A DNA stretch of 64,000 nt from an uncultured virus (IMG/VR IMGVR_UViG_3300047552_002383) (lineage: Duplodnaviria > Heunggongvirae > Uroviricota > Caudoviricetes): the IMG/VR virus record IMGVR_UViG_3300047552_002383; one strand, given 5' to 3'. This document shows, piece by piece, positions 7,553 to 63,479 of this stretch (positions are counted from its first letter, which is position 1; the number at the start of each line of letters is the position of its first letter). The notes beneath the pieces are model-generated. The model had not been told where the DNA came from. It saw only the letters and a list, made by a program, of their open reading frames with translations, and did no database searches. The translations under genes and the position numbers were made by a program.

Positions 7553-10474
7553 ATGAATATAGACTATATTCGCCCGCTTTCAGTAGTTACAGATAAAATA
7601 CTAATAAACAAAAATGCATTCGTTCATTTAATACCAGATTTTACGACAACTGGTGGTGAAATTTTGAATTATCTAAATTTAGATTATTCAAGATGTCATG
7701 CTATGATTATAAAAACTAGTATTTTTAAACTTGGAAATTTTACATTACAACCAAGAACATATTATACTCAAATAAAAAATAAAAAAGATCTTCCTGTTAA
7801 AATTTTACAATTTCTTCCAAATAAATTACCAGATAGAAAGTATTTTATAATTGATCACACCGTAACTTCCCAAGGTGTCGAGCACTTATATGGTACAATA
7901 GGTAAAAAACAAGCTATTATTTATTTAATTCAACAAATTAAATCAGAATTTAAAAAATTAAAAACAGAATACCCAAATTATGAAAATATAATCATTTTCA
8001 ATATTATTAATGAAGATGGATTATATGATATAATTCGTCAATTCCCTATTATTAGTAAAGTCGAAACATTAAACTTTTTTGATCGTATTGGATTAGTAGC
8101 AGTATGTGTTGGAACAGATGCGACTACATTTATACCAATATTACATTTTGATCAAAAAGGTGATGCTGAATTTTTGAAAAATAATCTTGTAAAAGTATCT
8201 AAAGCATTATCATTAGCCGTTCCACCAGAAATCAATATCAAAGACTCTACTGAAGCGCCTCCTGTGGATGGAGCAGCCCCCATTTCCCCCACGGCAGCGG
8301 AGACTGATCCTCAAAATCCTCCTCCTGCATTAAATGATATTACAACTAATATTATTAATGATACTATTTCAGATAATATTAAAAAAGATCTTGAATCTGA
8401 AATGTTTAAAATCACAGCAGAAGTCGATTCTGCTAGATTATCTAAAGTATTAAAAAATTATAAAATTCAAGATGAAATTGTTGCCAATAATATAAAATTA
8501 GTTGTAAATGAGTATTTAGAGAAAAATAAAAATAAAGAAATTGAAAAGAAAAATTTAGAAGATGTAGTATTAAAATCAATACATTTTTCTTTATTTGGAA
8601 CGGATGAAGTTAAAGATATCTATAAAGCAAATCCTGAATTATTAATTTCTAAGTTAGAAGAATCTGAAACATTCTCAAAACATATAACTTATCCAGAACC
8701 AATTCATCAGATTTCTTTAGTATCTCCTAAGGACGTTGTTCAAATAAATCGTATAACTGGACCTGTACGACATAAATTTGAATTTAATGAAAATATTCAT
8801 AGTAATATTAAAACATTATTCAAATCATTAGAACAAAAGACTAATTTTCCCGTTAAAGTTCAAAAATTTAGCTATGATTATTATGATGATAATCTAAATA
8901 GATTTATTGAATATACAATTACTTTGAAAAATATATCGGGTGGTGCACCTGAGCCATATGACGTTAAAATTAGAATTCCTGCATTAGTTAATGATAAGTA
9001 TTTTAAATTAAATGGTCAGGAATACATCCTTTCTTCTCAACAATTCCTTCATCCTTTAACTAAAGATAAGAATTCTGAGGCTCGATTTCTATCTCATTAT
9101 GGTATGATTCGTCTTCGTACTGTAAATATGAGATTTAATATTTCTCAAATTGATGAAGTTATTAATTATATTAGATTAAAATATCCTATTTTAATCGATA
9201 GTATTGATACTGATATCAATGGTAAAGTTTCTAAGATTCAATTTATTGATCCTAAACAAACTATTATCGATTTAAATAGTTCTACACCATTTAAAAATAC
9301 AGAAAAAGAGATATATCTTGAAGAATCTCAATATTTTATAAAGGATTTAAAAACTCAGAAATCTCAAAAAGTAAATAAATCAGAATATATTTTCGATTAT
9401 TTACTAAATCTAATTAAAGATATCGATCCAAATGAGGAATTAAAAAAATCAAAGAAATCAATTCCTTATCTGGAAGTATTCGTCATGTCTCGGAAAATGG
9501 CGTTTATAATCTATCTTTGGCAACAGATAGGACTAATAAATGCTTTAACTAAGTTCAATATTAAATATGAAATCGCAGCTGCCCCATCATTAGGGGTCCC
9601 GGATGTTAATTTATTGTTGAATAATGGTAATTATTTATATATTTATGGCGATACTAAAAAAGAAGAATTGATCGTTAATGGATTATTAACTTTACCAAAA
9701 GATATTCATTTTACAGACGAGCAATTAAATGATAAAACTGCTTTAGATAATTATATTAATGAAAAATATGGTACTCGTACTATTGAAACTCTAAATTTAG
9801 CAACAGCTAATTTTATTGATCCGGTTACTAATTCATTATTGCAGTATCAGGATTTACCTGATAATTTAATTGATATCGTTTGTGGACCATTAACTGATAA
9901 ATTATTAAATGATAGTGTCGATGCTTTAAATGATTTAAGAACCTTAAGAGTACGTCAGTCGGAACAAATGACGCATATACTCTATAAGGAACTTAGTATG
10001 GCACATAATAAGTATACCCGAGATCTACAATATGGTATTGAAAATGCTACTATGTATCTTGATCCTAACTATGTCAGTGATAATCTCATTGGCAAGCATA
10101 TGCATGCGGGTAACGATGGAGGCAGTGCATTAACATACGTTAATATGCATAATCCTGTTGACGAGATAACACAAAGTAGCAAGATCATTAAGACGGGCGT
10201 GGGGGGTGTTCCAAGTAAACGATCTTTTAATAAATTCCATCGAGGAATTCACCCAACTTATATTGGTAATATCGGTGCACATGAGTCAACAGAATACTCA
10301 AATGTTGGCTTAATAAATTTCCATACATTAGGTAGTGTTATCAGTAATAGGTATGGATTTTATGGTAATGTTTATATAGATCCAGAATCAGATCATATGA
10401 ATAGTTTAGGTATTGGAGAAGCACTAATACCTTTCGTCGACCAATTCGATTCGGATAGGCTTTTTTTGGCCCGT
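7553..10474 (+). CDS. rpoB: Phage RNA polymerase beta subunit, exon 1
   Basis: YFKLNGQEYILSSQ, HRGIHPTYIGNI...ESTEYSNVGLI and ALIPFVDQFDSDRLFLAR match RpoB conserved blocks (VRDVHPTHYGR.CP.ETPEG.NIGLI; SLIPFLEHDDANRALMG). Long N-terminal extension. Confidence 0.85.
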
Positions 10475-11037
10475 TAATTTTTAGCGGCACTATAGAGTGA
10501 TCTATAGTTGAAAATCTTTTTAATTCGGTGAAACTCCTAATAGGACAATACCGAGCTTATTAAATTCACTTTTTAAATAAACAAATAAAAAGAATCTACA
10601 GGTGTAGACTCTAAAGGTAACAGGAATTTAAATTTCTTTGATCCCCATTACTTGTACAAGATATTCAGCCAACGATTGCATGATCTCAACATCTCCTTCT
10701 GATGTTCTGATAAAATGAGAACTGATAGGTTCTTCAAATCCATCGTTGTCCGCGAAAATACCCCATCCTACTCCAAGGATAGGTAACTTTTTGGTAATAA
10801 CATCTTCAATACTGGTAATCATATTAAATTACTCCTGTGTTGATGATATTATATAATATCTATATGAAAAAGTGAAATAATAAGTGTAACGACTATCCCA
10901 AAAGGGAGTACACTCTAGTGAGTGGAAATAAAAGATAACTAATCATTATTAGTTAATAATATAGTCTAAACTATATGGCAACATATAGCAGGATTTAATT
11001 CCGGATAAAAAGTAACGATTTTTATCGAATATTTTTG
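10475..11037 (+). mobile_element. Group I intron (IA2-like) in the RNA polymerase beta gene
   Basis: P1 with U.G at the 5' splice site (CCGU|UAA..UUAGCGG); P element AATTCGGTGAAAC, Q AATACCGAG; P7 GACTA 10891-95 / TAGTC 10962-66; P7.1, P7.2, P8 and P9 hairpins; terminal G 11037. Splicing restores the frame: FLAR|THQSQKMP, equivalent to RpoB ALMGA-NMQRQAVP. Confidence 0.9.
10628..10822 (-). CDS. 64-aa intron-embedded antisense ORF of unknown function
   Basis: RBS AGGAG 9 nt before ATG, promoter motif at 10857-10864, hairpin 10591-10612 downstream; no LAGLIDADG, GIY-YIG or HNH motif. Confidence 0.6.
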   Translation of the reverse strand: MITSIEDVITKKLPILGVGWGIFADNDGFEEPISSHFIRTSEGDVEIMQSLAEYLVQVMGIKEI

Positions 11038-12822
11038 ACGCATCAAAGTCAGAAAATGCCTATTTTAAACGCTGAGGTTCCAATAGTCGCTAGTGGTACT
11101 GAATATATTGTTCCTCAATTAGCATCTGAAAAATTTACAAAAATTGCAGAGAGACCAGGTCAAGTAATTGATGAAGATCCAAATCATCATTTAACTATTC
11201 AATATGATAATGGTAAAACTGATAGGGTAGATATTCTTCCTAGATATGCTACTACTAAAAGAAATTCTGCAATACAAATATCATTAAACTCACTCCATAA
11301 AGGAGATACTTTCCAAAAAGGACAAATGATAGCTTGGTCCAATAGTTTTAACGGCGATGCATTAACCATAGGTAAAAATGTTCCCGTTGCAATTATGAGT
11401 TATCATCAAGGAAAATCTTTTGAAGATCAGTATGCAATTTCTGAAGATATGTCAGAATCATTTGTAACTGAATCTGTATCAAAAGTGTCTATTATTGTTC
11501 CACCAGATACTAAATTATTATTTATAAATAATAATATTGGAATTAATACGTCTAACAAAGATGTTTTAATAGAATTCCAATATTTAGATACATTAGAATC
11601 TTATATTGATCAATTTGATGAAATTGTTAATGATGAATATTTCGATGAAGATTTAGAAGCTATTATTCAAAAATCAAAAAATTCAATAAGAAGATTCTCC
11701 CCTGGTGGTGAAATTAGTGATATAAGAATTTATATTTCTAATAGAAATAAAGTGGATCCTGAAATTCTAAAATTATGGGATTTACAAAGACAAAAAATTA
11801 GTAAATTATCAAAAGATCTTCTAACTTATCGTACTGGAAAAGAAGATAGTAAATTATTAAATAATATTGATTTTAGCGTTTTAAAAACTGGATTTACAAA
11901 GTTTGAAGGTGCTAAAATTGATTTTTATATTAAACGTCCAAAAGAATTGCTTCTTGGTGATAAAATAAGCGGTAGACAAGGAAATAAAGGAGTTGTTGGA
12001 CATATTATTCCAAAAGATACTCCAGCTATAGCTGATTATACTGGAAGAATTGATTTATTTATGTCCCCATGTGGAGTTTTAGGACGTAAAAATACATCAA
12101 TTATCAAAGAACTTTATATATCTAAAATCTTTTATTTTCTACCTAAAATTATAATTAAAAAATTTCAAGATAATGAAAAAATTGAGGATATTAAAAATTT
12201 AATAATTCAAATATATACATTATTAGATCCTACTAAAGATAAACGTAATGTTTTATCAATTACTGAAAAATTAAATCAAATTACTCCTGCTAATTTAAAG
12301 GCAGGGATTGAAAATAATAAAATATTCTTTAATATTATAATCCCACCATTCAATCCTATTGATATTAATAATATTCAGCAAGCTGCTAAAATATTAAGAA
12401 TACCATTAAATGAAACAGTAGAGATAACTGAATTTGGTGGAATTAAAACTAAAATTAAAGTTCCTGTAGGCTTCCTTTATTTCGGTGCAATGGAACAACT
12501 TTCAAGTGACTATGAAAGTACACGTAGTACTGCTGGATATATTTCTTCTACTGGACAACCTACACAAGGGAAGCGTAAATCTGGTGGCCAGTCTATAGGT
12601 GAACTAGATATTAATGCATTATTATCGTATGATGCAAAAGATACATTAAAAGAACTTATGACTGCTAGAAGTGATAATCTTAGAACTAAACGGCAAATGT
12701 TAAGAGATTTAAGAGAATCTGGAAAGACATTTATGGAATCTTGGCAAGATGAAGAAAAAGGTCAAAGTTCCCTTCTTCTTTCTATTTATTTAACTGGGTG
12801 TGGATTATTTACTAACTTATGA
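11038..12822 (+). CDS. rpoB: Phage RNA polymerase beta subunit, exon 2 (spliced product 1568 aa)
   Basis: GDKISGRQGNKGVV and RSTAGYISSTGQPTQGKRKSGGQSIGELD match RpoB GDKMAGRHGNKGV and RSTG.YS..TQQP..GK...GGQRFGEME. Confidence 0.9.
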   Translation, partial: THQSQKMPILNAEVPIVASGTEYIVPQLASEKFTKIAERPGQVIDEDPNHHLTIQYDNGKTDRVDILPRYATTKRNSAIQISLNSLHKGDTFQKGQMIAWSNSFNGDALTIGKNVPVAIMSYHQGKSFEDQYAISEDMSESFVTESVSKVSIIVPPDTKLLFINNNIGINTSNKDVLIEFQYLDTLESYIDQFDEIVNDEYFDEDLEAIIQKSKNSIRRFSPGGEISDIRIYISNRNKVDPEILKLWDLQRQKISKLSKDLLTYRTGKEDSKLLNNIDFSVLKTGFTKFEGAKIDFYIKRPKELLLGDKISGRQGNKGVVGHIIPKDTPAIADYTGRIDLFMSPCGVLGRKNTSIIKELYISKIFYFLPKIIIKKFQDNEKIEDIKNLIIQIYTLLDPTKDKRNVLSITEKLNQITPANLKAGIENNKIFFNIIIPPFNPIDINNIQQAAKILRIPLNETVEITEFGGIKTKIKVPVGFLYFGAMEQLSSDYESTRSTAGYISSTGQPTQGKRKSGGQSIGELDINALLSYDAKDTLKELMTARSDNLRTKRQMLRDLRESGKTFMESWQDEEKGQSSLLLSIYLTGCGLFTNL

Positions 12823-25329: not shown

Positions 25330-25935
25330 ATGATAATTAGAAAATTATATAAGTTCGAAGCCGCACATATTGTTAGGAAATGTTCAACAAAACGATGTTC
25401 TAGAAGTATTCATGGACATTCATATAAAGTCGAATTATTTATTGAATCTGGATCTCTAGATAATGGAGATATGGTTATAGATTTTGGACTTCTAAAACCA
25501 AATATTTCTGATTTTTTAGACTCTTTTGATCATTGTATGATGGTGTGGAAAGAAGATCTTCCTGAATTTATAGATTTTATAAAAAAATATTCAGAAAGAT
25601 ATATTATTTTTCCAGTAACTCCAACAGCTGAAAATATAGCATTATTAATTTTATATATAACTAATAAAATAATAAAAAATACCATTTTTTGCAATGGAGA
25701 AGACAATACTATTGTTAAAAAAGTAATTGTACATGAAACTGCAACTGGATATGCAGAAGCTAATTATATTGATCTTGATTTGATTAATTATAATTTATTA
25801 GATATAACATTTAGCAATGCAATAAAAAATGATTGGTCTACAGATATAATTAATTCAATTATATCAAGAATCCAATTTACTAATATAAAACCAGATTCTA
25901 ATATATATTGTGTTTCGGAAATATCTGATGTCTAA
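25330..25935 (+). CDS. queD: 6-carboxytetrahydropterin synthase
   Basis: FEAAH...C...HGHSY, MVIDFG.LK, FDH, PTAENIA, VHET. Confidence 0.9.
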   Translation: MIIRKLYKFEAAHIVRKCSTKRCSRSIHGHSYKVELFIESGSLDNGDMVIDFGLLKPNISDFLDSFDHCMMVWKEDLPEFIDFIKKYSERYIIFPVTPTAENIALLILYITNKIIKNTIFCNGEDNTIVKKVIVHETATGYAEANYIDLDLINYNLLDITFSNAIKNDWSTDIINSIISRIQFTNIKPDSNIYCVSEISDV

Positions 25936-28696: not shown

Positions 28697-28792
28697 TAAA
28701 AAATCTTTAGTTTTGAACGTTCGAGTCGTTCACCTCGCACCATAAATTCTATGCGAGGTTGGTGGAATTGGTAGACACCTATCGATTTTTTA
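28697..28792 (+). ncRNA. Circularly permuted tRNA-like RNA 1 (Leu-like arms, YrlA topology)
   Basis: T arm GAACG-TTCGAGT-CGTTC 28715-31, acceptor 3' strand ACCTCGC-A-CCA 28732-42, 10-nt linker, acceptor 5' strand GCGAGGT 28753-59, D arm GTG-GAATTGGTAGA-CAC; closed by TAAAAAATC/GATTTTTTA. Confidence 0.8.
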
Positions 28793-28863
28793 GCCTTTAA
28801 ATTAATAGTTATTATTATCGTATTGGCTCAACAAGTTCATATATCGTGTATTTCTCAAGTAGA

Positions 28864-29001
28864 TATTTGTAAATAAATTAATTGGCAACTTAGGTTCGAA
28901 TCCTAATCCCGCCTCCAAATGTATTTTTAAACAAAGAATATATTTGGGCGGGATAGTTCAGTGGTAGAACTCCAATCTAGTCATTGTAAAATTTACAAAT
29001 A
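28864..29001 (+). ncRNA. Circularly permuted tRNA-like RNA 2 (YrlA topology)
   Basis: T arm TTAGG-TTCGAAT-CCTAA 28890-906, TCCCGCC-T-CCA 28907-17, hairpin linker, GGCGGGA 28947-53, D arm GTTC-AGTGGTA-GAAC; closed by ATTGG/CCAAT and TATTTGTAAAT/ATTTACAAATA. Confidence 0.8.
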
Positions 29002-29093
29002 AATTGAAAGAGAAGAAGCAATACACAAACAGTCTTGAAAACTGTCGGGGAGGGGAGATGGGTATAAGCTCCCCTTACCCACTTATACGTTAT

Positions 29094-29170: not shown

Positions 29171-29217
29171 GTATCTATATAGAATTTTTAAAAATTTTAT
29201 ATAGATATTATATAATA

Positions 29218-29396
29218 AGTACATCGGTCGATCTGTCGATTGATCTGTGGATAACCATGTACTGGTCACACCCAGTTCATCCTAGGACCCGCAATCATAT
29301 GCGAATATAGATTGCCTAGCGTGAAGGTGTCGATCAAATCCACTTAAGTCCACGAGTGGTGTAGTGATGGGTATATAATAATATATACCCATTATC
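29218..29396 (+). ncRNA. Promoter-driven structured non-coding RNA
   Basis: Promoter motif 29200; GC-richer non-coding stretch with several stems and crossing pairings; terminal hairpin GATGGGTATATA/TATATACCCATT followed by T-rich tail. Confidence 0.65.
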
Positions 29397-29485
29397 TATT
29401 TATTTTTTTAAAATTTTAATATAGATATTAATATATTAGAACAATTCAATATAACGAGTGATGACCGTTATATTGAATTGTTCTT

Positions 29486-42730: not shown

Positions 42731-42897
42731 TTGAAGCTAAAGAATTTCGTGATAGGTTAAAAATATGTTCTAATTGTTCATATTATAAACCAGAAACGAG
42801 TGTTCTTCCTGCTAGATGTGGGGAATGTGGATGTGTCCTAGCTATTAAAGCTAGATTCAAAATTTTTCATTGTCCACTAAAACCACCAAATTGGTAA
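42709..42897 (+). CDS. Small Cys-rich protein
   Basis: RLKICSNC...CGECGC...CP...W. Confidence 0.55.
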   Translation: MGKLNVLVEAKEFRDRLKICSNCSYYKPETSVLPARCGECGCVLAIKARFKIFHCPLKPPNW

Positions 42898-42949
42898 AAA
42901 ATAACCCTGGGATTTCCCCAGGGTTATTTATTTTTTAAAAAGGTTCGAA

Positions 42950-56143: not shown

Positions 56144-57049
56144 ATGATTGAAAAAGATTTCTGGCATATCGTAGAGAAAAAACTTAAATATGTTCTTTAT
56201 GGAGATACCGATAGTTTATTCGTTCATTTACCAACTCTTGATAATACAGATATTGAGAATTCATTAGCTAAATCTTCTGAAGTTGCTAAAAATATTAATA
56301 ATTTAATAACCAATTATTTAAATACAACATTATTACCAAAATTACATGTCTCGCCAACTCATAATTATACAGAATTTAAAAATGAGTTTATATGTAATAG
56401 AATAATGTTTTTAGATATCAAAAAAAATTATGCATATAGTATGATTTCAAAAGAAGGTAAGATTTTTGATCCACCTTCAGTTGAATATACTGGTATCCCA
56501 ATTGTTAGAAGTAATATTAATGAATTTAGTAAAGAATTGCTAAGAGATCTTATAGAAAAAATTGTACTAAATTCAAAACTAAATAAACAAAATATAATCC
56601 AAGAATTAGGAAGATTAGCTCAAGAAAAAAATGATTATTTAAATCTGCAAATAAAAAATGGAAATTTTAAATATTTTGCAGTACCAGTAAGATGGAATGA
56701 TGGTGATTATATTAAAGACCCATCTTCTGTGGTAGGTATGAGATTATATAATTCATTAATCGGAACTGAAATTTTCAGACCATTATCTAGTTCTTTACAA
56801 ATACCTATTGAAATTAGTAACGATTCAAAAATAAAAACATTAGATTTAAATACAAAATTTGGTATCAATCAAGAACATTTAAATATATTAAATTTTATAT
56901 GTTTACCTTATAATTATAATCCAGAAGAAGTATTTGAGTTATTTAAACAATTTAATATATCAGTAATGAATAATTTATGGGGAAAATTTACAGAAGCTAC
57001 AACTATTCAAAAAGTCGTAAATTTAATTAAAGATTTTGCAAAAAAATAA
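56144..57049 (+). CDS. Family-B DNA polymerase, C-terminal fragment (motif C + thumb)
   Basis: YGDTDSLFV, KKNYAY, YTGIPIVRSN; no motif A/B or exonuclease domain. Confidence 0.85.
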   Translation: MIEKDFWHIVEKKLKYVLYGDTDSLFVHLPTLDNTDIENSLAKSSEVAKNINNLITNYLNTTLLPKLHVSPTHNYTEFKNEFICNRIMFLDIKKNYAYSMISKEGKIFDPPSVEYTGIPIVRSNINEFSKELLRDLIEKIVLNSKLNKQNIIQELGRLAQEKNDYLNLQIKNGNFKYFAVPVRWNDGDYIKDPSSVVGMRLYNSLIGTEIFRPLSSSLQIPIEISNDSKIKTLDLNTKFGINQEHLNILNFICLPYNYNPEEVFELFKQFNISVMNNLWGKFTEATTIQKVVNLIKDFAKK

Positions 57050-57053
57050 TATC

Positions 57054-57770
57054 ATGAAAAATAAAGCAATTAGTTTATCTGGTGGATTAGACTCTACAGT
57101 ACTTAGCTATAAAATAGTAAATGAATTTGGAGCAGATAAAGTAAAAGCATTGACATTTAATTATGGTCAACGGCATTCTATTGAAGTTGAAAAGGCTAAG
57201 ATAACTTGTGAAATATTAAATATTGAACATAAAGTAATTGATATTTCTTTTCTTGGAGATTTAGTATCTACATCTAGTTCTTTAATAAAAGGAAGTGAAA
57301 TTGAAGTTCCTACAATTAAAGAAATATTAGGGAATCCTCAACCAGTTACATATGTACCATATCGTAATTTAATATTTCTAGCTTTAACTCTATCATTTGC
57401 TGAATCACATGATGCAGATGAAATATTTATTGCATCACAATCACAAGATTTATATGCATATTGGGACAATAGTCAAGAATTTATTAATAAAATAAATGAA
57501 ATATCTCAATTAAATCGTTTACACGAAATAAAGATATCTGCACCATTTGTACACTTATCAAAAGCAGATGAAATTAAAATTGGTAGAGAATTAAATGTGC
57601 CGTTTAAAAATTGTTTTACTTGTTATAATCCTAATGAATTAGAAGAAAGTTGCGGTAAATGTCCTAGTTGTGCAGAAAGAATTAAAGCATTTATGGAAAA
57701 TCATTTAGTTGATCCTATTCCATATCAGATCGATATTCCATGGACCCCATGGAGTTCAGAATGTTTGTAA
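57054..57770 (+). CDS. queC: 7-cyano-7-deazaguanine synthase
   Basis: LSGGLDST, FNYGQRH..E, TYVPYRN, CY...CGKCPSC. Confidence 0.93.
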   Translation: MKNKAISLSGGLDSTVLSYKIVNEFGADKVKALTFNYGQRHSIEVEKAKITCEILNIEHKVIDISFLGDLVSTSSSLIKGSEIEVPTIKEILGNPQPVTYVPYRNLIFLALTLSFAESHDADEIFIASQSQDLYAYWDNSQEFINKINEISQLNRLHEIKISAPFVHLSKADEIKIGRELNVPFKNCFTCYNPNELEESCGKCPSCAERIKAFMENHLVDPIPYQIDIPWTPWSSECL

Positions 57771-58821: not shown

Positions 58822-59067
58822 ATGATACTAAACAATATAAATAATCTAATATTAGAATTAGACAATAATACTCATATGATTCGCGAAAATATAAAAAGGA
58901 ATCAAACCGTGGATATTGTTTTAAAAAAAGATCAGCCTACAGGTATTTTAACAAGAGGAAAAGTTCATAAAATTTTATCTCCTGGAAAAATACATACTAG
59001 AGGTATTAAAGTAATGCTATCCGATGGAAAAGTTGGAAGAGTTCAACGGATAATTAATGATGTGTAG
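58822..59067 (+). CDS. YwbE-like small protein carrying the shared N-terminal leader
   Basis: MILNNINNLILE then RENIK...VDIVLKKDQPTG.LTRG.V..IL...H.RGIKV.L.DG.VGRVQ. Confidence 0.7.
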   Translation: MILNNINNLILELDNNTHMIRENIKRNQTVDIVLKKDQPTGILTRGKVHKILSPGKIHTRGIKVMLSDGKVGRVQRIINDV

Positions 59068-59722
59068 TATAATTGGATCATTCGATAGTGATTATATTGT
59101 TGGTTTATATCTATTAAATAAAAGTAGAGGGAATTTTAGTCATTCAATTTCATATATTGATCCAATAACTACAGATTTTAATATTATTAAACAAGATTTT
59201 GGTGAAGTTGATAATCTATATGATATTGTATCTTCACAAGAATTTAAAAATAAGTATATAGTAATGCATAATCAAGCTCCAACTGGTGGCTTGATAAAGA
59301 ACGATGCTTATATACATCCGGCACATATTCAAGATAAAAATACAAATCATTATTTATATCATAATGGTATTGTTAAAACTAGAGATATGGTGCGTTTAGA
59401 ACGATTACTAAATCAAAAATTCGAATGGGATACGTATGCTATTTTAGCAGATATTATTGAAAATGGATTATTAGGATCTTTAAAATTTTTGGATGCTTCT
59501 TTTGCATGTTTATATATTAAACAAGGCAATGAAGTATTATTATTTAGAAATAAGAGTTCTATAATTTATTATGATGAAAATTTAACAATATCATCTCAAA
59601 AATTTGAGAATTCAATCGAACTTCCACCAAATAATCTTTTCCAATTAAATTTTAATACAAAACAACTTGTAATAGTCGATTCTTTTAAAAATATTGATGA
59701 TAAATATTTTTTCGCTAGTTAA
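59057..59722 (+). CDS. Class II (Ntn) glutamine amidotransferase-like protein
   Basis: MCSIIG N-terminal Cys, SRG, HNQAPT, HP, HNGIV, WDT. Confidence 0.8.
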   Translation: MMCSIIGSFDSDYIVGLYLLNKSRGNFSHSISYIDPITTDFNIIKQDFGEVDNLYDIVSSQEFKNKYIVMHNQAPTGGLIKNDAYIHPAHIQDKNTNHYLYHNGIVKTRDMVRLERLLNQKFEWDTYAILADIIENGLLGSLKFLDASFACLYIKQGNEVLLFRNKSSIIYYDENLTISSQKFENSIELPPNNLFQLNFNTKQLVIVDSFKNIDDKYFFAS

Positions 59723-59763: not shown

Positions 59764-60150
59764 ATGTTAAATTTTACCGTACCTGCTTGGGTTATTATTG
59801 TAGTGGTAATTATTTTTGCAATTATAGATACAATAAGATCTAGACGTGCAAAATATAAACTACCATATGAATTGATGGATCGCCACACGTCAGAACTATT
59901 GGAAAAGAATTCAAAGATATATGAAACATCTATTGAATTCTATAAAGAAATAATCAAAGGATATGAAGAACAAATGGAAATTTTACAACAAGCAACAAGA
60001 ACTACAATAAATGATTCGGTAGAAATGTTGAAATTTAATGAATATATAATAAAAAAAATTATCGAAAAGGATTTTGACGAAAGTGAAATTCAAGATTTAA
60101 TAGAAACTCATGAAATATTAAAAGAACAAATTTCAATGGTTTCAAAATAG
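59764..60150 (+). CDS. Membrane-anchored coiled-coil protein
   Basis: N-terminal TM; promoter motif 59723; terminator 60156-60188. Confidence 0.55.
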   Translation: MLNFTVPAWVIIVVVIIFAIIDTIRSRRAKYKLPYELMDRHTSELLEKNSKIYETSIEFYKEIIKGYEEQMEILQQATRTTINDSVEMLKFNEYIIKKIIEKDFDESEIQDLIETHEILKEQISMVSK

Positions 60151-60221
60151 TATGGAAAAGGCCTTCTAATAAAATAGAAGGCCTTTTTATTTTTAAAAAT
60201 TATATATAGATATTATATAAC

Positions 60222-60348
60222 AGTCCAGTACCATAAGTTTACTGGGTTAGACCATGTGTCGACAGGTTCGACTATTCCTGTTTAAATCCAATAGTAAGTC
60301 TAGAGGGTAATAATGTTTATGGCATTACTACTCTCTAGGCGGATCTAA
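60222..60348 (+). ncRNA. ncRNA array unit 1
   Basis: Promoter 60205; 5' hairpin, closing stem TTAGA../..TCTAA, kissing hairpins, long GTCTAGAG/CTCTAGGC stem; T-rich tail. Confidence 0.8.
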
Positions 60349-60385
60349 TTTTTATTTTTTAAAAATTTTATATAGATATAATAAG

Positions 60386-60514
60386 GTAGCCTAGAACCGT
60401 ACAATCTTCTAGGTTAGATCAAATAGGTCGATAGGTTTTTGACTATTCCTATTAAAAAAATAGTAAGTCTAGAGATGATAATATTACGGTATTATTGTCT
60501 CTAGGCGGATCTAA
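60386..60514 (+). ncRNA. ncRNA array unit 2 (homolog of unit 1)
   Basis: Promoter 60371; same blocks as unit 1 with compensatory changes. Confidence 0.8.
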
Positions 60515-60559
60515 TTTTTTTATTTTTGTAAAATTTTTATATAGATATTATTATAATAT

Positions 60560-60768
60560 AAGATATACAACTGTTTATTTTATATAGTAATGGATAGTTA
60601 GGGACCACTTCCTATGGCGATTAGCCAGAATAACTATCCTTCAAGGAATAATGTGGCGACGGTGGCGATACACCCTGGTCCGATATTGCTCTACCCAGAC
60701 AAAGATCAGAGCAAAAGTAGATTTTTATATATCCAAGCAATTGGGTATATGAAAATCTACTTGTTTTT
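60560..60768 (+). ncRNA. ncRNA array unit 3
   Basis: Promoter 60540; GGATAGTTA/TAACTATCC stem, crossing GGACCA/TGGTCC and TTCCT/AGGAA, long terminal hairpin 60715-60762. Confidence 0.7.
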
Positions 60769-60794
60769 ATTTTATTTATATAGATATTATATAG

Positions 60795-61015
60795 TATCCA
60801 AAATGGTGGGTGGCCACTCACTATTATAATTGGATCTGGAGGTAAGTTCGTCAACTTATAATTCCTTCAGTATCGAAGTTGACTATGTTCGGTATTATGT
60901 CTATAACTACTGGACGAAAAAATATAGGCTTTGGATTCTCTTGTACCTCGCATGAGAGTTCGAGATAATAGAGTACACATCCAGGAGTTTTCTCCTGGGT
61001 GTGGGGCCTATTTTA
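60795..61015 (+). ncRNA. ncRNA array unit 4
   Basis: Promoter 60779; H-type pseudoknot CTGGAGG/CCTTCAG with GTCAACTT/AAGTTGAC; 3' multi-stem domain; T-rich tail. Confidence 0.7.
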
Positions 61016-61046
61016 TTTTTAATTTATTTATATAGATATAATATAA

Positions 61047-61175
61047 TGTCGTACGTACGATTCGTTGTCTGGGACGGTCATTGTGTAAAAACGAAGTGTT
61101 ACGTTTTTAAGCCCAGAGATGCGAAGGAGAATGACTAGGAGGGAGATTAACACACTCCCTCCGAAACCTTTTTAT
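61047..61175 (+). ncRNA. ncRNA array unit 5
   Basis: Promoter 61031; TCTGGG/CCCAGA crossed by GTCATT/AATGAC; terminal GGAGGGAG/CTCCCTCC. Confidence 0.7.
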
Positions 61176-61211
61176 TTTGTGTTTTCAAATATTTGATATA
61201 GATATTATATA

Positions 61212-61368
61212 GTGTTCGCCTCGAAAGTCTTCGGACCGTTAGAGAATACAATGGTAGCAATATCATTGGGCGAGGTAAATTGGCTCCCCTGGACAAGGAG
61301 TGTTCGCGCCTGCGGAATTGGTAGTGATTTCGATAGTTGAGCACCTACGGGTGTTCGGCGCCTTTTTA
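61212..61368 (+). ncRNA. ncRNA array unit 6
   Basis: Promoter 61197; hairpins capped by C(UUCG)G, GCAA and C(UACG)G tetraloops; T run. Confidence 0.7.
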
Positions 61369-61395
61369 CTTGTTTATTTTTTTTAATATAGATAT

Positions 61396-61908
61396 ATGTC
61401 TAATAATAAAAATTTTATAGTATTTGATGTAGAATCGATTGGTCTTCATGGTGAAGGATTTGCCGTAGGATATATTATTATCAAAGATCTATCAATTATA
61501 AATGAAAGATTAATTGCATGTAATCCAGAAAAAGCTAGTGGGACATTAATAAATCATACTTGGGTCAAAAATAATATTCCAATTTTCGAATATGATTGTT
61601 TAAATCCAGGTATTGTTCGTAAACTTTTTTGGGATGATTGGGAAAAATTTAGATCTGAATTTGATGGATATTTAGTTGCAGATTGTAGTTGGCCAGTTGA
61701 AACAAATTTTTTATCTCAATGTATTAAAGATAATGAATTTCGTGAATTTTTTGGTCCATACCCATTATTAGATTTGTCTTCTATATTAATAACTAGAGGA
61801 ATAGATCCCTTAACTACTTTTGAAAGAAAAGAAAATGAACTTCCAATTCATCATCCTTTAAATGATGCTAGACAATCTGCTAGAATCCTAATTGATTTAC
61901 TTAAATGA
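61396..61908 (+). CDS. DEDDh 3'-5' exonuclease-like protein
   Basis: VFDVESIG...HHPLNDARQ. Confidence 0.75.
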   Translation: MSNNKNFIVFDVESIGLHGEGFAVGYIIIKDLSIINERLIACNPEKASGTLINHTWVKNNIPIFEYDCLNPGIVRKLFWDDWEKFRSEFDGYLVADCSWPVETNFLSQCIKDNEFREFFGPYPLLDLSSILITRGIDPLTTFERKENELPIHHPLNDARQSARILIDLLK

Positions 61909-62774: not shown

Positions 62775-63479
62775 ATGTTTGGAAAAAATAAAATTTATTC
62801 ACAAAAAGATTTTAAATATCATAATGTTCTTTTTGTAAAAGATATTTTTCACACCATCCAAGGCGAGGGAGTTTTCAGTGGATGGCCTAGTACATTTATT
62901 AGACTAGCCCATTGTACACTTAAATGTAATTTTTGCGACACTGATTTTGAAACAGATGTTCGCCATTTAAGTATTAATGAAACATTAGAAAAAATAGAAA
63001 AAATAACTCCAGACCATACTAGACTAATCGTTATTACAGGAGGTGAGCCTTTTCTACAACCATTATGTTCTAGATTATGTAGAGAATTATTAAATTTACA
63101 CTATACTGTTCAAATTGAAACTTCTGGTTCAGTATGGTTAGATGATCTTCCCGTTACAAATACTAATTTTCATATTGTATGTTCTCCAAAAACTGGAAAA
63201 TTACATCCTAAATTAGAACAATGGATTAAAGCATATAAATATATTATTAGTTCTGATAATCACAGTGAAAATGATGGATTACCAATCATTAATCCTCAAA
63301 CTAATAAGTTTATCAAATTAGCTAGACCTATTTCAAAAGGTATCCCCATTTATATTTCTCCTATGGATGAATATGATAAAGATAAAAATAAAGAGAATTT
63401 AAATACTATAAAAAATATTTCTTTAAAATATGGATACCGAATTTCTTTACAAGTTCATAAATATTTAGGTGTTGAATAA
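62775..63479 (+). CDS. queE: 7-carboxy-7-deazaguanine synthase (radical SAM)
   Basis: IFHTIQGEG, FIRL..CxxxCxxCDT, ITGGEP, IETSG, SPK, SLQVHK. Confidence 0.93.
   Translation: MFGKNKIYSQKDFKYHNVLFVKDIFHTIQGEGVFSGWPSTFIRLAHCTLKCNFCDTDFETDVRHLSINETLEKIEKITPDHTRLIVITGGEPFLQPLCSRLCRELLNLHYTVQIETSGSVWLDDLPVTNTNFHIVCSPKTGKLHPKLEQWIKAYKYIISSDNHSENDGLPIINPQTNKFIKLARPISKGIPIYISPMDEYDKDKNKENLNTIKNISLKYGYRISLQVHKYLGVE

Follow-up and report, generated by a model that had tools for sequence, protein, structure and literature searches.

In a 64,000-nucleotide (nt) stretch of DNA from an uncultured virus of the Caudoviricetes (IMG/VR record IMGVR_UViG_3300047552_002383; the whole stretch is referred to below as the window), the segment from position 60195 to 61375 consists of six consecutive promoter-RNA-terminator cassettes and is free of protein-coding genes. 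We estimate a probability of roughly 65% that these six units are real, separately expressed structured RNA genes, their expression being predicted, and the best reading of their function is that they yield stand-alone, early-made structured RNAs that would act as folded molecules. Since units 1 and 2 are paralogues, the array would comprise five unrelated RNA families. The anatomy of the array, its lacking coding capacity, the strand bias of its folding, its conservation and some compensatory change were directly observed, and transcription of the units, with its start and end points and its timing, is predicted. The DNA stems from a jumbo-type phage that is uncultured, very rich in AT and equipped with a multisubunit RNA polymerase of its own.

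In the proposed scheme, each gene would be composed of its own copy of a long AT-rich promoter, an RNA of ca. 130–225 nt, and its own terminator (i.e., a hairpin followed by a U-run), and, as in AR9 and phages of the phiKZ type, the multisubunit RNA polymerase of the phage would start ca. 6 bases past the promoter motif. The RNAs are probably produced alongside the replication and nucleotide genes, because the same type of promoter precedes topoisomerase, ribonucleotide reductase, DNA polymerase and transfer RNA (tRNA) genes.

Six non-coding cassettes under a phage promoter motif

A preliminary description of the window had regarded the segment as gene-free, and this was borne out: the longest open reading frame (ORF) in 60151–61395 spans 77 amino acids (aa), none of the five longest ORFs of the array matched Pfam at an expectation value (E) of ≤0.1, and the short ORFs of the array are disrupted in relatives by 1-, 2- and 5-base insertions or deletions (indels). 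That the units encode very small proteins is extremely improbable. Short ORFs do exist, e.g., one of 21 codons in unit 5 that L001 (a close relative from IMG/VR, introduced below) shares, but this frame starts only 1 base after its Shine-Dalgarno-like sequence and extends across the terminator hairpin. Between units 1 and 2, the short ORFs agree neither in frame nor in peptide; the frame-breaking indels and the missing Pfam match likewise argue against translation.

The units have a GC content of 31–50%, versus 26.5% for the window as a whole, in agreement with their earlier portrayal as GC-richer, heavily base-paired modules. Also as described earlier, only units 1 and 2 proved homologous (76% identity over ca. 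170 bases), with no other pair of units being alike; the other shared stretches correspond to a ca. 50-base junction of T-tail and promoter. Tandem Repeats Finder returned no rows for the array at a minimum score of 30, and its direct repeats were confined to the promoter junctions and to blocks common to units 1 and 2. Nothing pointed to a CRISPR (clustered regularly interspaced short palindromic repeats) array, since no periodic repeat occurs in the stretch, which leaves a collection of different RNAs, as originally proposed.

Within 60100–61450, no match to Rfam 15, whose families include 6S RNA, RNase P, self-cleaving ribozymes, riboswitches and GOLLD/ROOL, reached its gathering score; the best sub-threshold scores (14–26 bits versus cut-offs of 47–440, inspected up to E = 10) all reflected AT-rich or hairpin noise. 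ARAGORN found no tRNA or transfer-messenger RNA (tmRNA) in any of the six units. That none of the units had initially been recognised as tRNA, tmRNA, RNase P or a known ribozyme is in line with this, and known ribozymes and aptamers were discarded as candidates because no Rfam family matches; the further suggestion of new ribozymes or aptamers found no backing, in that no such family matches. Each unit shows, in silico, the hallmarks of a stand-alone small RNA (sRNA), i.e., its own promoter, no coding capacity, a length below ca. 300 nt, and a 3′ end composed of a hairpin and a U-run.

All units lie on the plus strand. The left border of the array is formed by the terminator of the upstream 128-aa gene (59764–60150), a 14-pair stem with T-run at 60155–60188. 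The predicted RNAs then extend over 60220–60358 (unit 1, ca. 135 nt, the paralogue of unit 2), 60386–60525 (unit 2, ca. 137 nt), 60555–60772 (unit 3, ca. 215 nt), 60794–61020 (unit 4, ca. 225 nt), 61046–61180 (unit 5, ca. 130 nt) and 61212–61368 (unit 6, ca. 155 nt and 50% GC, with a 5′ three-way junction and then a 3′ domain that contains a terminator hairpin at 61339–61356).

The promoter motif, with core TATAGATAT, was retrieved at exactly the six places reported for it, i.e., 60205, 60371, 60540, 60779, 61031 and 61197. This core occurs 36 times in the window versus 5.17 times expected, a count attained by none of 100 shuffles, and 30 of the 36 copies are located outside ORFs of ≥90 aa, even though such ORFs fill ca. 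80% of the window. Thirteen copies are situated 19–82 bases upstream of a co-oriented start codon, the genes behind the copies including those for topoisomerase II, ribonucleotide reductase beta, DNA polymerase and a QueD-type protein, and one copy lies upstream of tRNA-Met. The full consensus reads as a T-rich stretch followed by TTTA-TATAGATAT-WATATA. Sigma-70-like sites showed no enrichment in the scan (9 versus 9.8 expected).

In AR9, early promoters take the form AAATATATATTAT-(6N)-G (PMC5312081). For phiKZ relatives, the same paper describes AT-rich motifs that are likewise long and highly conserved, transcription starting 6 nt downstream. The motif of the array is also long, conserved, AT-rich, overrepresented and located before genes, in a phage with a multisubunit RNA polymerase whose beta-type subunits are split (beta and beta-prime genes; 7553–10477 and 11035–12822, PHROG E of 3e-28 and 2e-31). 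It differs from the AR9 and phiKZ early promoters in its actual sequence, with TATAGATAT as core, and in being known from sequence alone. In kind, the array motif clearly resembles these early promoters, and transcription is expected to start ca. 6 bases after the motif, driven by the phage-encoded polymerase. Units 2, 4 and 6 indeed carry a G exactly 6 bases past the motif, recalling the AR9 start rule (G at +7); this likeness is limited to these three units, and the starts are predicted ones.

Specifically, the promoters span 60195–60219 (unit 1; core at 60205–60213, with the T-rich stretch upstream and WATATA downstream), 60361–60385 (unit 2; core at 60371–60379, putative start G at 60386 by analogy with the motif-(6N)-G rule of AR9, PMC5312081), 60530–60554 (unit 3; core at 60540–60548), 60773–60793 (unit 4; core at 60779–60787, putative start G at 60794), 61021–61045 (unit 5; core at 61031–61039) and 61187–61211 (unit 6; core at 61197–61205, putative start G at 61212).

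Predicted folds and conservation of the units

Folding of the plus strand yielded z-scores of –3.5, –5.8, –6.3, –5.6, –2.5 and –1.4 for units 1 to 6, respectively, and the plus-strand fold was more stable than that of the minus strand in all six units, by 4–22 kcal/mol. A strict terminator scan produced 7 rows versus 0.7 expected, assigned to the upstream gene, unit 3 (three overlapping rows, corresponding to a 20-pair hairpin at 60715–60762 plus T-run), unit 6 (two rows) and one internal hairpin of unit 1. The units had each been described as ending in a hairpin or closing stem with a T-rich tail; in the strict sense this applied to units 3 and 6, whereas units 1, 2, 4 and 5 carry a 3′ hairpin or closing stem with a T-run located 0–8 bases beyond it.

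Crossing (pseudoknot or kissing) pairings had been proposed for five of the six units. When defined as a Watson-Crick helix of at least 5 pairs between bases left unpaired in the minimum-free-energy (MFE) fold and crossing an MFE helix, such a pairing was recovered in unit 5 only, i.e., a candidate 6-bp loop-loop interaction between 61096–61101 and 61148–61153 that 1 of 60 shuffles also attained. The crossing pairings visible by eye in units 1–4 reuse bases that are already paired in the MFE fold; the broader claim was not reproduced.

Both homologues and covariation had been put forward as checks on the preliminary description. Regarding the former, units 2–6 are kept in L001 and in a contig of sequencing run X5 (see below). 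Regarding the latter, 7 of the 47 predicted pairs were changed on both sides among unit 1, unit 2 and the corresponding L001 unit, with 95.7% of cells paired; these values were reached by 1 of 500 shuffles, and slid controls gave 0–1 such pairs. Unit 4 (74 predicted pairs) displayed two compensatory and five one-sided changes, with one pair lost at an indel, and unit 5 (36 pairs) one compensatory and six one-sided changes. Covariation was missing from units 3 and 6: unit 3 (80 pairs) displayed three one-sided changes that keep pairing and no broken pair, and unit 6 (56 pairs) two one-sided changes, its third difference being located in a loop. Taken over the RNAalifold folds of units 3–6, pairing was kept by 16 of 16 one-sided changes. 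The fold of units 1 and 2 is thus supported and those of units 4 and 5 are weakly supported, with conservation and stability as the only support for the folds of units 3 and 6.

These data also bear on the idea that the region acts at the DNA level, as a promoter cluster that primes replication (i.e., a transcription-activated origin) or soaks up polymerase, the RNAs being mere by-products. Having six strong promoters per 1.2 kb within the replication-gene region would suit such a role, which we nevertheless deem very improbable, since GC skew does not turn at 60–61 kb, each unit carries a terminator, the transcribed parts are conserved and not the promoters alone, and the G-U pairs and plus-strand bias point to selection on the RNA.

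The closest relative, L001, is a 51-kb IMG/VR contig rated 18% complete, which would imply a genome of roughly 280 kb. It has the same flanking genes and units 2–6 in the same order, without unit 1. A blastn search of the phage collection with "distant" settings and a 1251-base query gave no match. Scanning IMG/VR with the exonuclease-like protein encoded behind the array returned two loci, with the array present in L001 only, and no relative was found there with the RNA polymerase subunit. IMG/VR scans with a unit 6 23-mer, and likewise with a gapped unit 6 pattern, hit the L001 contig only; a unit 3 18-mer hit that contig plus five chance matches, and a unit 1/2 16-mer hit 28 loci, i.e., the same contig plus 27 chance matches in coding DNA. 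Among the 26 IMG/VR loci retrieved with a promoter-pair scan, a comparable GC-rich non-coding interval was found in the L001 contig only, the other loci being iterons, simple repeats or genes. Aligning the exonuclease to metagenome contigs gave 80 loci of at most 53% identity, mostly GC-rich and none with any unit, and the 10 matches of a unit 6 18-mer in genome contigs were all due to chance. The phage lineage is therefore rare within the databases searched.

Ten DNA sequencing runs contain part of the stretch, of which four (X3, X5, X8 and X10) were compared in detail. A 7567-base contig of Logan run X5 covers 60349–61577 and has 60012–60349 replaced by 169 other letters, so that unit 1 is absent there too; the exonuclease homologue P0002 (74% identity) likewise lies on a contig of 7567 bases. 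A piece from run X3 equals 60192–60381 without a single difference, indicating that unit 1 exists outside the window, and fragments of units 5 and 6, in part more diverged, occur in runs X8 and X10. Unit number hence varies, with six units in two lineages and five in two, which fits the earlier characterization of the array as expandable. Since units 1 and 2 differ by 24%, and unit 2 differs from its L001 counterpart by 13%, the duplication that gave rise to units 1 and 2 probably predates the split of the two lineages, with L001 having probably lost unit 1. The repeated T-tail/promoter junction and the variable presence of unit 1 fit a gain and loss of whole cassettes.

Identity to L001 amounted to 87.6% for unit 2, 97.7% for unit 3, 90.5% for unit 4, 87.6% for unit 5 and 98.2% for unit 6. 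Across ten flanking genes compared with L001, 0.68–0.93 of the third codon positions and 0.87–0.98 of the second positions were identical, meaning that units 3 and 6 are held, over their whole length, as tightly as the most constrained positions of these genes. In X5, the part covering 60349–61577, which takes in the array and 182 bases from the start of the gene behind it, showed 121 differences and 32 gaps per 1229 bases, and its flanking coding DNA showed 60 differences per 313 bases and 28 per 150, with one part being too diverged for alignment. In the relatives, conservation of the units thus equals or exceeds that of nearby genes.

Candidate functions and known counterparts

Because conservation of units 3 and 6 is not confined to a short seed but extends from end to end and into the loops, the RNAs may bind host or phage proteins as folded decoys or scaffolds, a proposal to which we attach somewhat less than even odds. 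The same observation argues against the explanation ranked second to protein binding, i.e., regulation of host or phage mRNAs by base pairing, with the units as classical bacterial-type sRNAs that have a short single-stranded seed and a terminator hairpin with U-tail. Their size, own promoters and rho-independent-type 3′ ends would agree with this, and jumbo phages such as 201phi2-1 have been reported to make such RNAs (PMC11512511), but the units consist of several stems, are rich in GC and leave few long stretches unpaired, and we regard base pairing as unlikely.

Several findings weigh against the view of the units as structured, protein-binding RNA genes. None of the ten runs that contain part of the stretch is on record as RNA. 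The z-scores of units 5 and 6 are modest (–2.5 and –1.4), and units 2, 4 and 5 (0.876–0.905) are conserved no better than the best-conserved neighbouring genes. Covariation is thin because only two full relatives are at hand, and it is missing from units 3 and 6 because these are too conserved. Moreover, the RNAalifold folds were picked on the same two sequences, so that agreement was favoured. An independent test combined the single-sequence MFE fold of each window unit with a simple global alignment against L001. Of the changed pairs, 14 stayed paired and 23 were disrupted on the plus strand, compared with 5 and 23, respectively, on the minus strand; this supports the folds weakly at most, the test being confounded partly by the indels of unit 4 and by the 5′ region of unit 5, which is variable. 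Finally, the protein-binding mechanism derives from the conservation pattern alone.

For unit 6, the preliminary description had overlooked that it may be a cis-acting leader, and in the proposed scheme this unit may control the operon behind it in cis, either additionally or exclusively. In its stricter form, this explanation holds that unit 6 is not a free RNA but a riboswitch or protein-dependent attenuator that determines whether transcription from the unit 6 promoter continues into the downstream exonuclease-like, 288-aa and QueE genes, with units 1–5 being free RNAs or read-through valves. The downstream genes (exonuclease-like, 288-aa, QueE and 115-aa) abut or overlap in an operon-like manner, and in L001 no promoter motif is present between unit 6 and the next gene. 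In the window, a seventh motif copy does occur there (61387–61395, plus strand; absent in L001), yet it lies 1 base from the ATG of the exonuclease-like gene (61396–61908), versus 19–82 bases for the copies before other genes. Transcription would therefore start inside this gene, and the copy is probably not a working promoter for it.

Moreover, unit 6 contains the heptamer GUGUUCG three times (at 61212, 61300 and 61351), as reached by 2 of 2000 shuffles, with GAGCAC at 61339 as its sole possible partner within the unit. When the 3′ strand of the terminator is withheld, GAGCAC pairs with the second heptamer copy instead, the alternative hairpin reaching –46.0 versus –52.3 kcal/mol, and such a switch would follow the logic of an attenuator. 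Unit 6 is also 98% conserved and has an aptamer-like 5′ three-way junction. Its likeness to terminating riboswitches and attenuators, which no other unit shares, would lie in the conserved 5′ junction, in the terminator with its competing hairpin, and in the operon that follows directly. Unit 6 differs from these in that no known class matches (no riboswitch, T-box or leader family at E≤10), in that its complete design is that of an sRNA, and in that another motif copy follows it in the window. Furthermore, alternative hairpins can be found in many sequences, the downstream genes may use an unrecognised promoter class, and each of the other five units precedes another promoter rather than a gene. 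On balance, the leader explanation for unit 6 is possible but doubtful. If true, however, it would amount to a phage-borne class of regulatory RNA located before DNA-modification genes.

Another proposal is that the RNAs serve as anti-defence decoys that mimic type III antitoxin RNAs or CRISPR repeats (the latter being RNA anti-CRISPRs). Antitoxins of the ToxI type are small structured RNAs, encoded as tandem repeats of a short unit beside the toxin gene, and phages can copy them to escape abortive infection. Early expression at high copy would suit a decoy, and so would the difference in unit number between lineages (six versus five). However, the array differs from ToxI in lacking both a tandem repeat and a toxin gene: no tandem short repeats and no toxin-like neighbour were found, and multi-stem units of 130–225 nt are unlike antitoxin units or single CRISPR repeats. 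A type III antitoxin was accordingly rejected, there being no tandem 34–45-nt repeats and no adjacent gene for a toxin endoribonuclease. The antitoxin mimicry suggested initially was thus not sustained, and a decoy role of this kind is considered very unlikely.

The nearest known counterparts of the array are the sRNAs of other jumbo phages. In Pseudomonas phage 201phi2-1, 11 sRNAs were described, three of which are intergenic and eight derived from 5′ untranslated regions, with one being conserved across giant phages (PMC11512511). For phiKZ, a single 75-nt sRNA was predicted that Northern blotting did not confirm (PMC8244752). The array resembles the sRNAs of 201phi2-1 in being made of short non-coding units, each flanked by a phage promoter and a terminator, and in belonging to a phage that encodes a multisubunit RNA polymerase itself. 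The difference with these jumbo-phage sRNAs is that six complete cassettes (seven with the one at 29200–29405) are present here, six of them head to tail and five unrelated to each other, under promoters of the same class as those of the replication genes and without a match in the phage collection. A head-to-tail battery of unrelated RNA cassettes was not found in a literature search, which cannot show its absence from print.

In packing several small stable-RNA genes together in a lytic phage, the array also recalls phage tRNA clusters, such as the tRNA region of T4 that encodes the stable RNAs C and D, and the seventh cassette indeed sits among tRNA genes. However, none of the six units is a tRNA or tmRNA, and each has its own promoter and terminator, whereas the members of such clusters are cut from one precursor.

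Phage sRNAs are known mostly as single, scattered finds lacking an assigned function. Here, six complete, non-homologous RNA genes would follow one another, each driven by the type of promoter that also serves the replication genes. Conservation is tighter in two of them than in the proteins encoded around the array, and five new RNA families with defined ends would make a compact, testable set. If one of the units indeed were a decoy, sensor or ribozyme, it would constitute a new RNA tool in phage-host conflict. The array also provides a search rule for other AT-rich jumbo phages, i.e., to look for GC-rich, ORF-free islands between repeats of a phage promoter.

Other RNA elements and genes in the window and related loci

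The genes neighbouring the array encode a thymidylate kinase, a DUF2196 protein, an amidotransferase-like protein, a membrane protein, the exonuclease-like protein and QueE. For the 288-aa gene downstream, the best score in the protein atlas was 0.77 and gave no lead. Elsewhere, the window carries 8 tRNA genes (at 29.1–36.3 kb) and, in addition to the RNA polymerase subunits, genes for topoisomerase II, a clamp loader, a helicase, ribonucleotide reductase, a DNA polymerase fragment, QueC-like, QueE-like and QueD-type proteins, ThyX, SSB and thymidylate kinase. QueD-, QueC- and QueE-like genes, together with one for an N-terminal-Cys amidotransferase-like protein (phrog_12378), are found at 25330–25935, 57036–57770, 59057–59722 and 62775–63479, which we take to be the set expected for 7-deazaguanine modification of DNA. 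This gene set is interrupted by the RNA array.

A seventh cassette of the same design is located at 29190–29405 (plus strand), between tRNA-Arg and the promoter of tRNA-Met. It consists of a motif copy at 29200, a predicted RNA of 190 nt with 40% GC and a z-score of –5.4, and a terminator hairpin with T-run, the next motif following at 29420; its sequence did not match Rfam at E≤1. Just upstream of tRNA-Arg, the GC-rich stretch 29047–29082 (plus strand) could form an H-type pseudoknot by eye, with two G-runs each having a later C-run in crossing order; its nested fold alone has a z-score of –1.8.

Between 28698 and 29000 (plus strand), two tRNA-like genes were noted that neither ARAGORN nor Rfam had called and whose halves appear to be swapped in order. 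In both, the T-arm, the 3′ acceptor strand and CCA come first, followed after 10 or 29 bases by the 5′ acceptor strand and the D-arm. The 3′ half lies at 28715–28742 in the first gene and at 28890–28917 in the second, with the 5′ half running from 28753 and 28947, respectively. The acceptor strands form 7 of 7 pairs in both genes, and leader and trailer are complementary as well (28698 with 28784 and 28865 with 28992, over 8 and 9–10 pairs). After scripted rotation, ARAGORN called the second gene as tRNA-Thr(AGU) with a regular cloverleaf broken after position 37, its perfect 5-pair anticodon stem being built from both pieces, while the rotated first gene was ambiguous. Alanine charging needs G-U as the third acceptor pair. 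A tmRNA was discarded as an explanation for both genes, since the tmRNA mode of ARAGORN called none and their third acceptor pair is G-C or C-G, not G-U. To our knowledge, tRNA genes in swapped order are known from algae and archaea only, and none of the papers listed by a literature search combined permuted tRNA and phage in its title or abstract.

Taken at its most far-reaching, the material could mean that this lineage runs a dedicated early "RNA arsenal" in which seven or more structured RNAs, each with its own promoter, represent new families and the near-invariant units 3 and 6 new functional classes. In that case, unit 6 would be a new riboswitch or attenuator gating the exonuclease-QueE operon, unit 3 a new protein-binding or catalytic RNA in host takeover, and the swapped-order tRNA-like genes (28698–29000) a sign of RNA cutting and joining not known for bacteriophages. 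As a whole, this picture is speculative and seems unlikely.

Two further ORF-free gaps in the window fold stably. The gap at 42731–42949 (plus strand) has a z-score of –6.0 and a strong terminator hairpin at its end, and that at 10478–10850, between the RNA polymerase genes, has a z-score of –5.4 on the minus strand, downstream of a minus-strand motif at 10856.

Homologues of the exonuclease-like gene were also seen near tRNA genes in other phage and metagenome DNA. That the gene travels with small-RNA genes was rejected, as tRNAs were nearby in only 2 of the 41 loci scanned (L002 and L032). In L002 (another phage, 43% GC), a stretch of ca. 1.5 kb (1040–2540) that is ORF-poor, GC-rich and repeat-containing precedes an RNA-ligase-looking gene (as judged from its translated start) and a 52% homologue of the exonuclease-like gene. 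It contains a tRNA-like element with a shortened anticodon loop (41 bits in Rfam) and a tRNA-SeC called by ARAGORN, with no other Rfam match in 1040–2540 at E≤0.01. L032 (1046–2626, 35% GC) holds the closest metagenome relative of the exonuclease-like gene, at 53% identity; it is embedded in a cluster of tRNA genes, the neighbouring ones being 42 bases upstream and 271 bases downstream.

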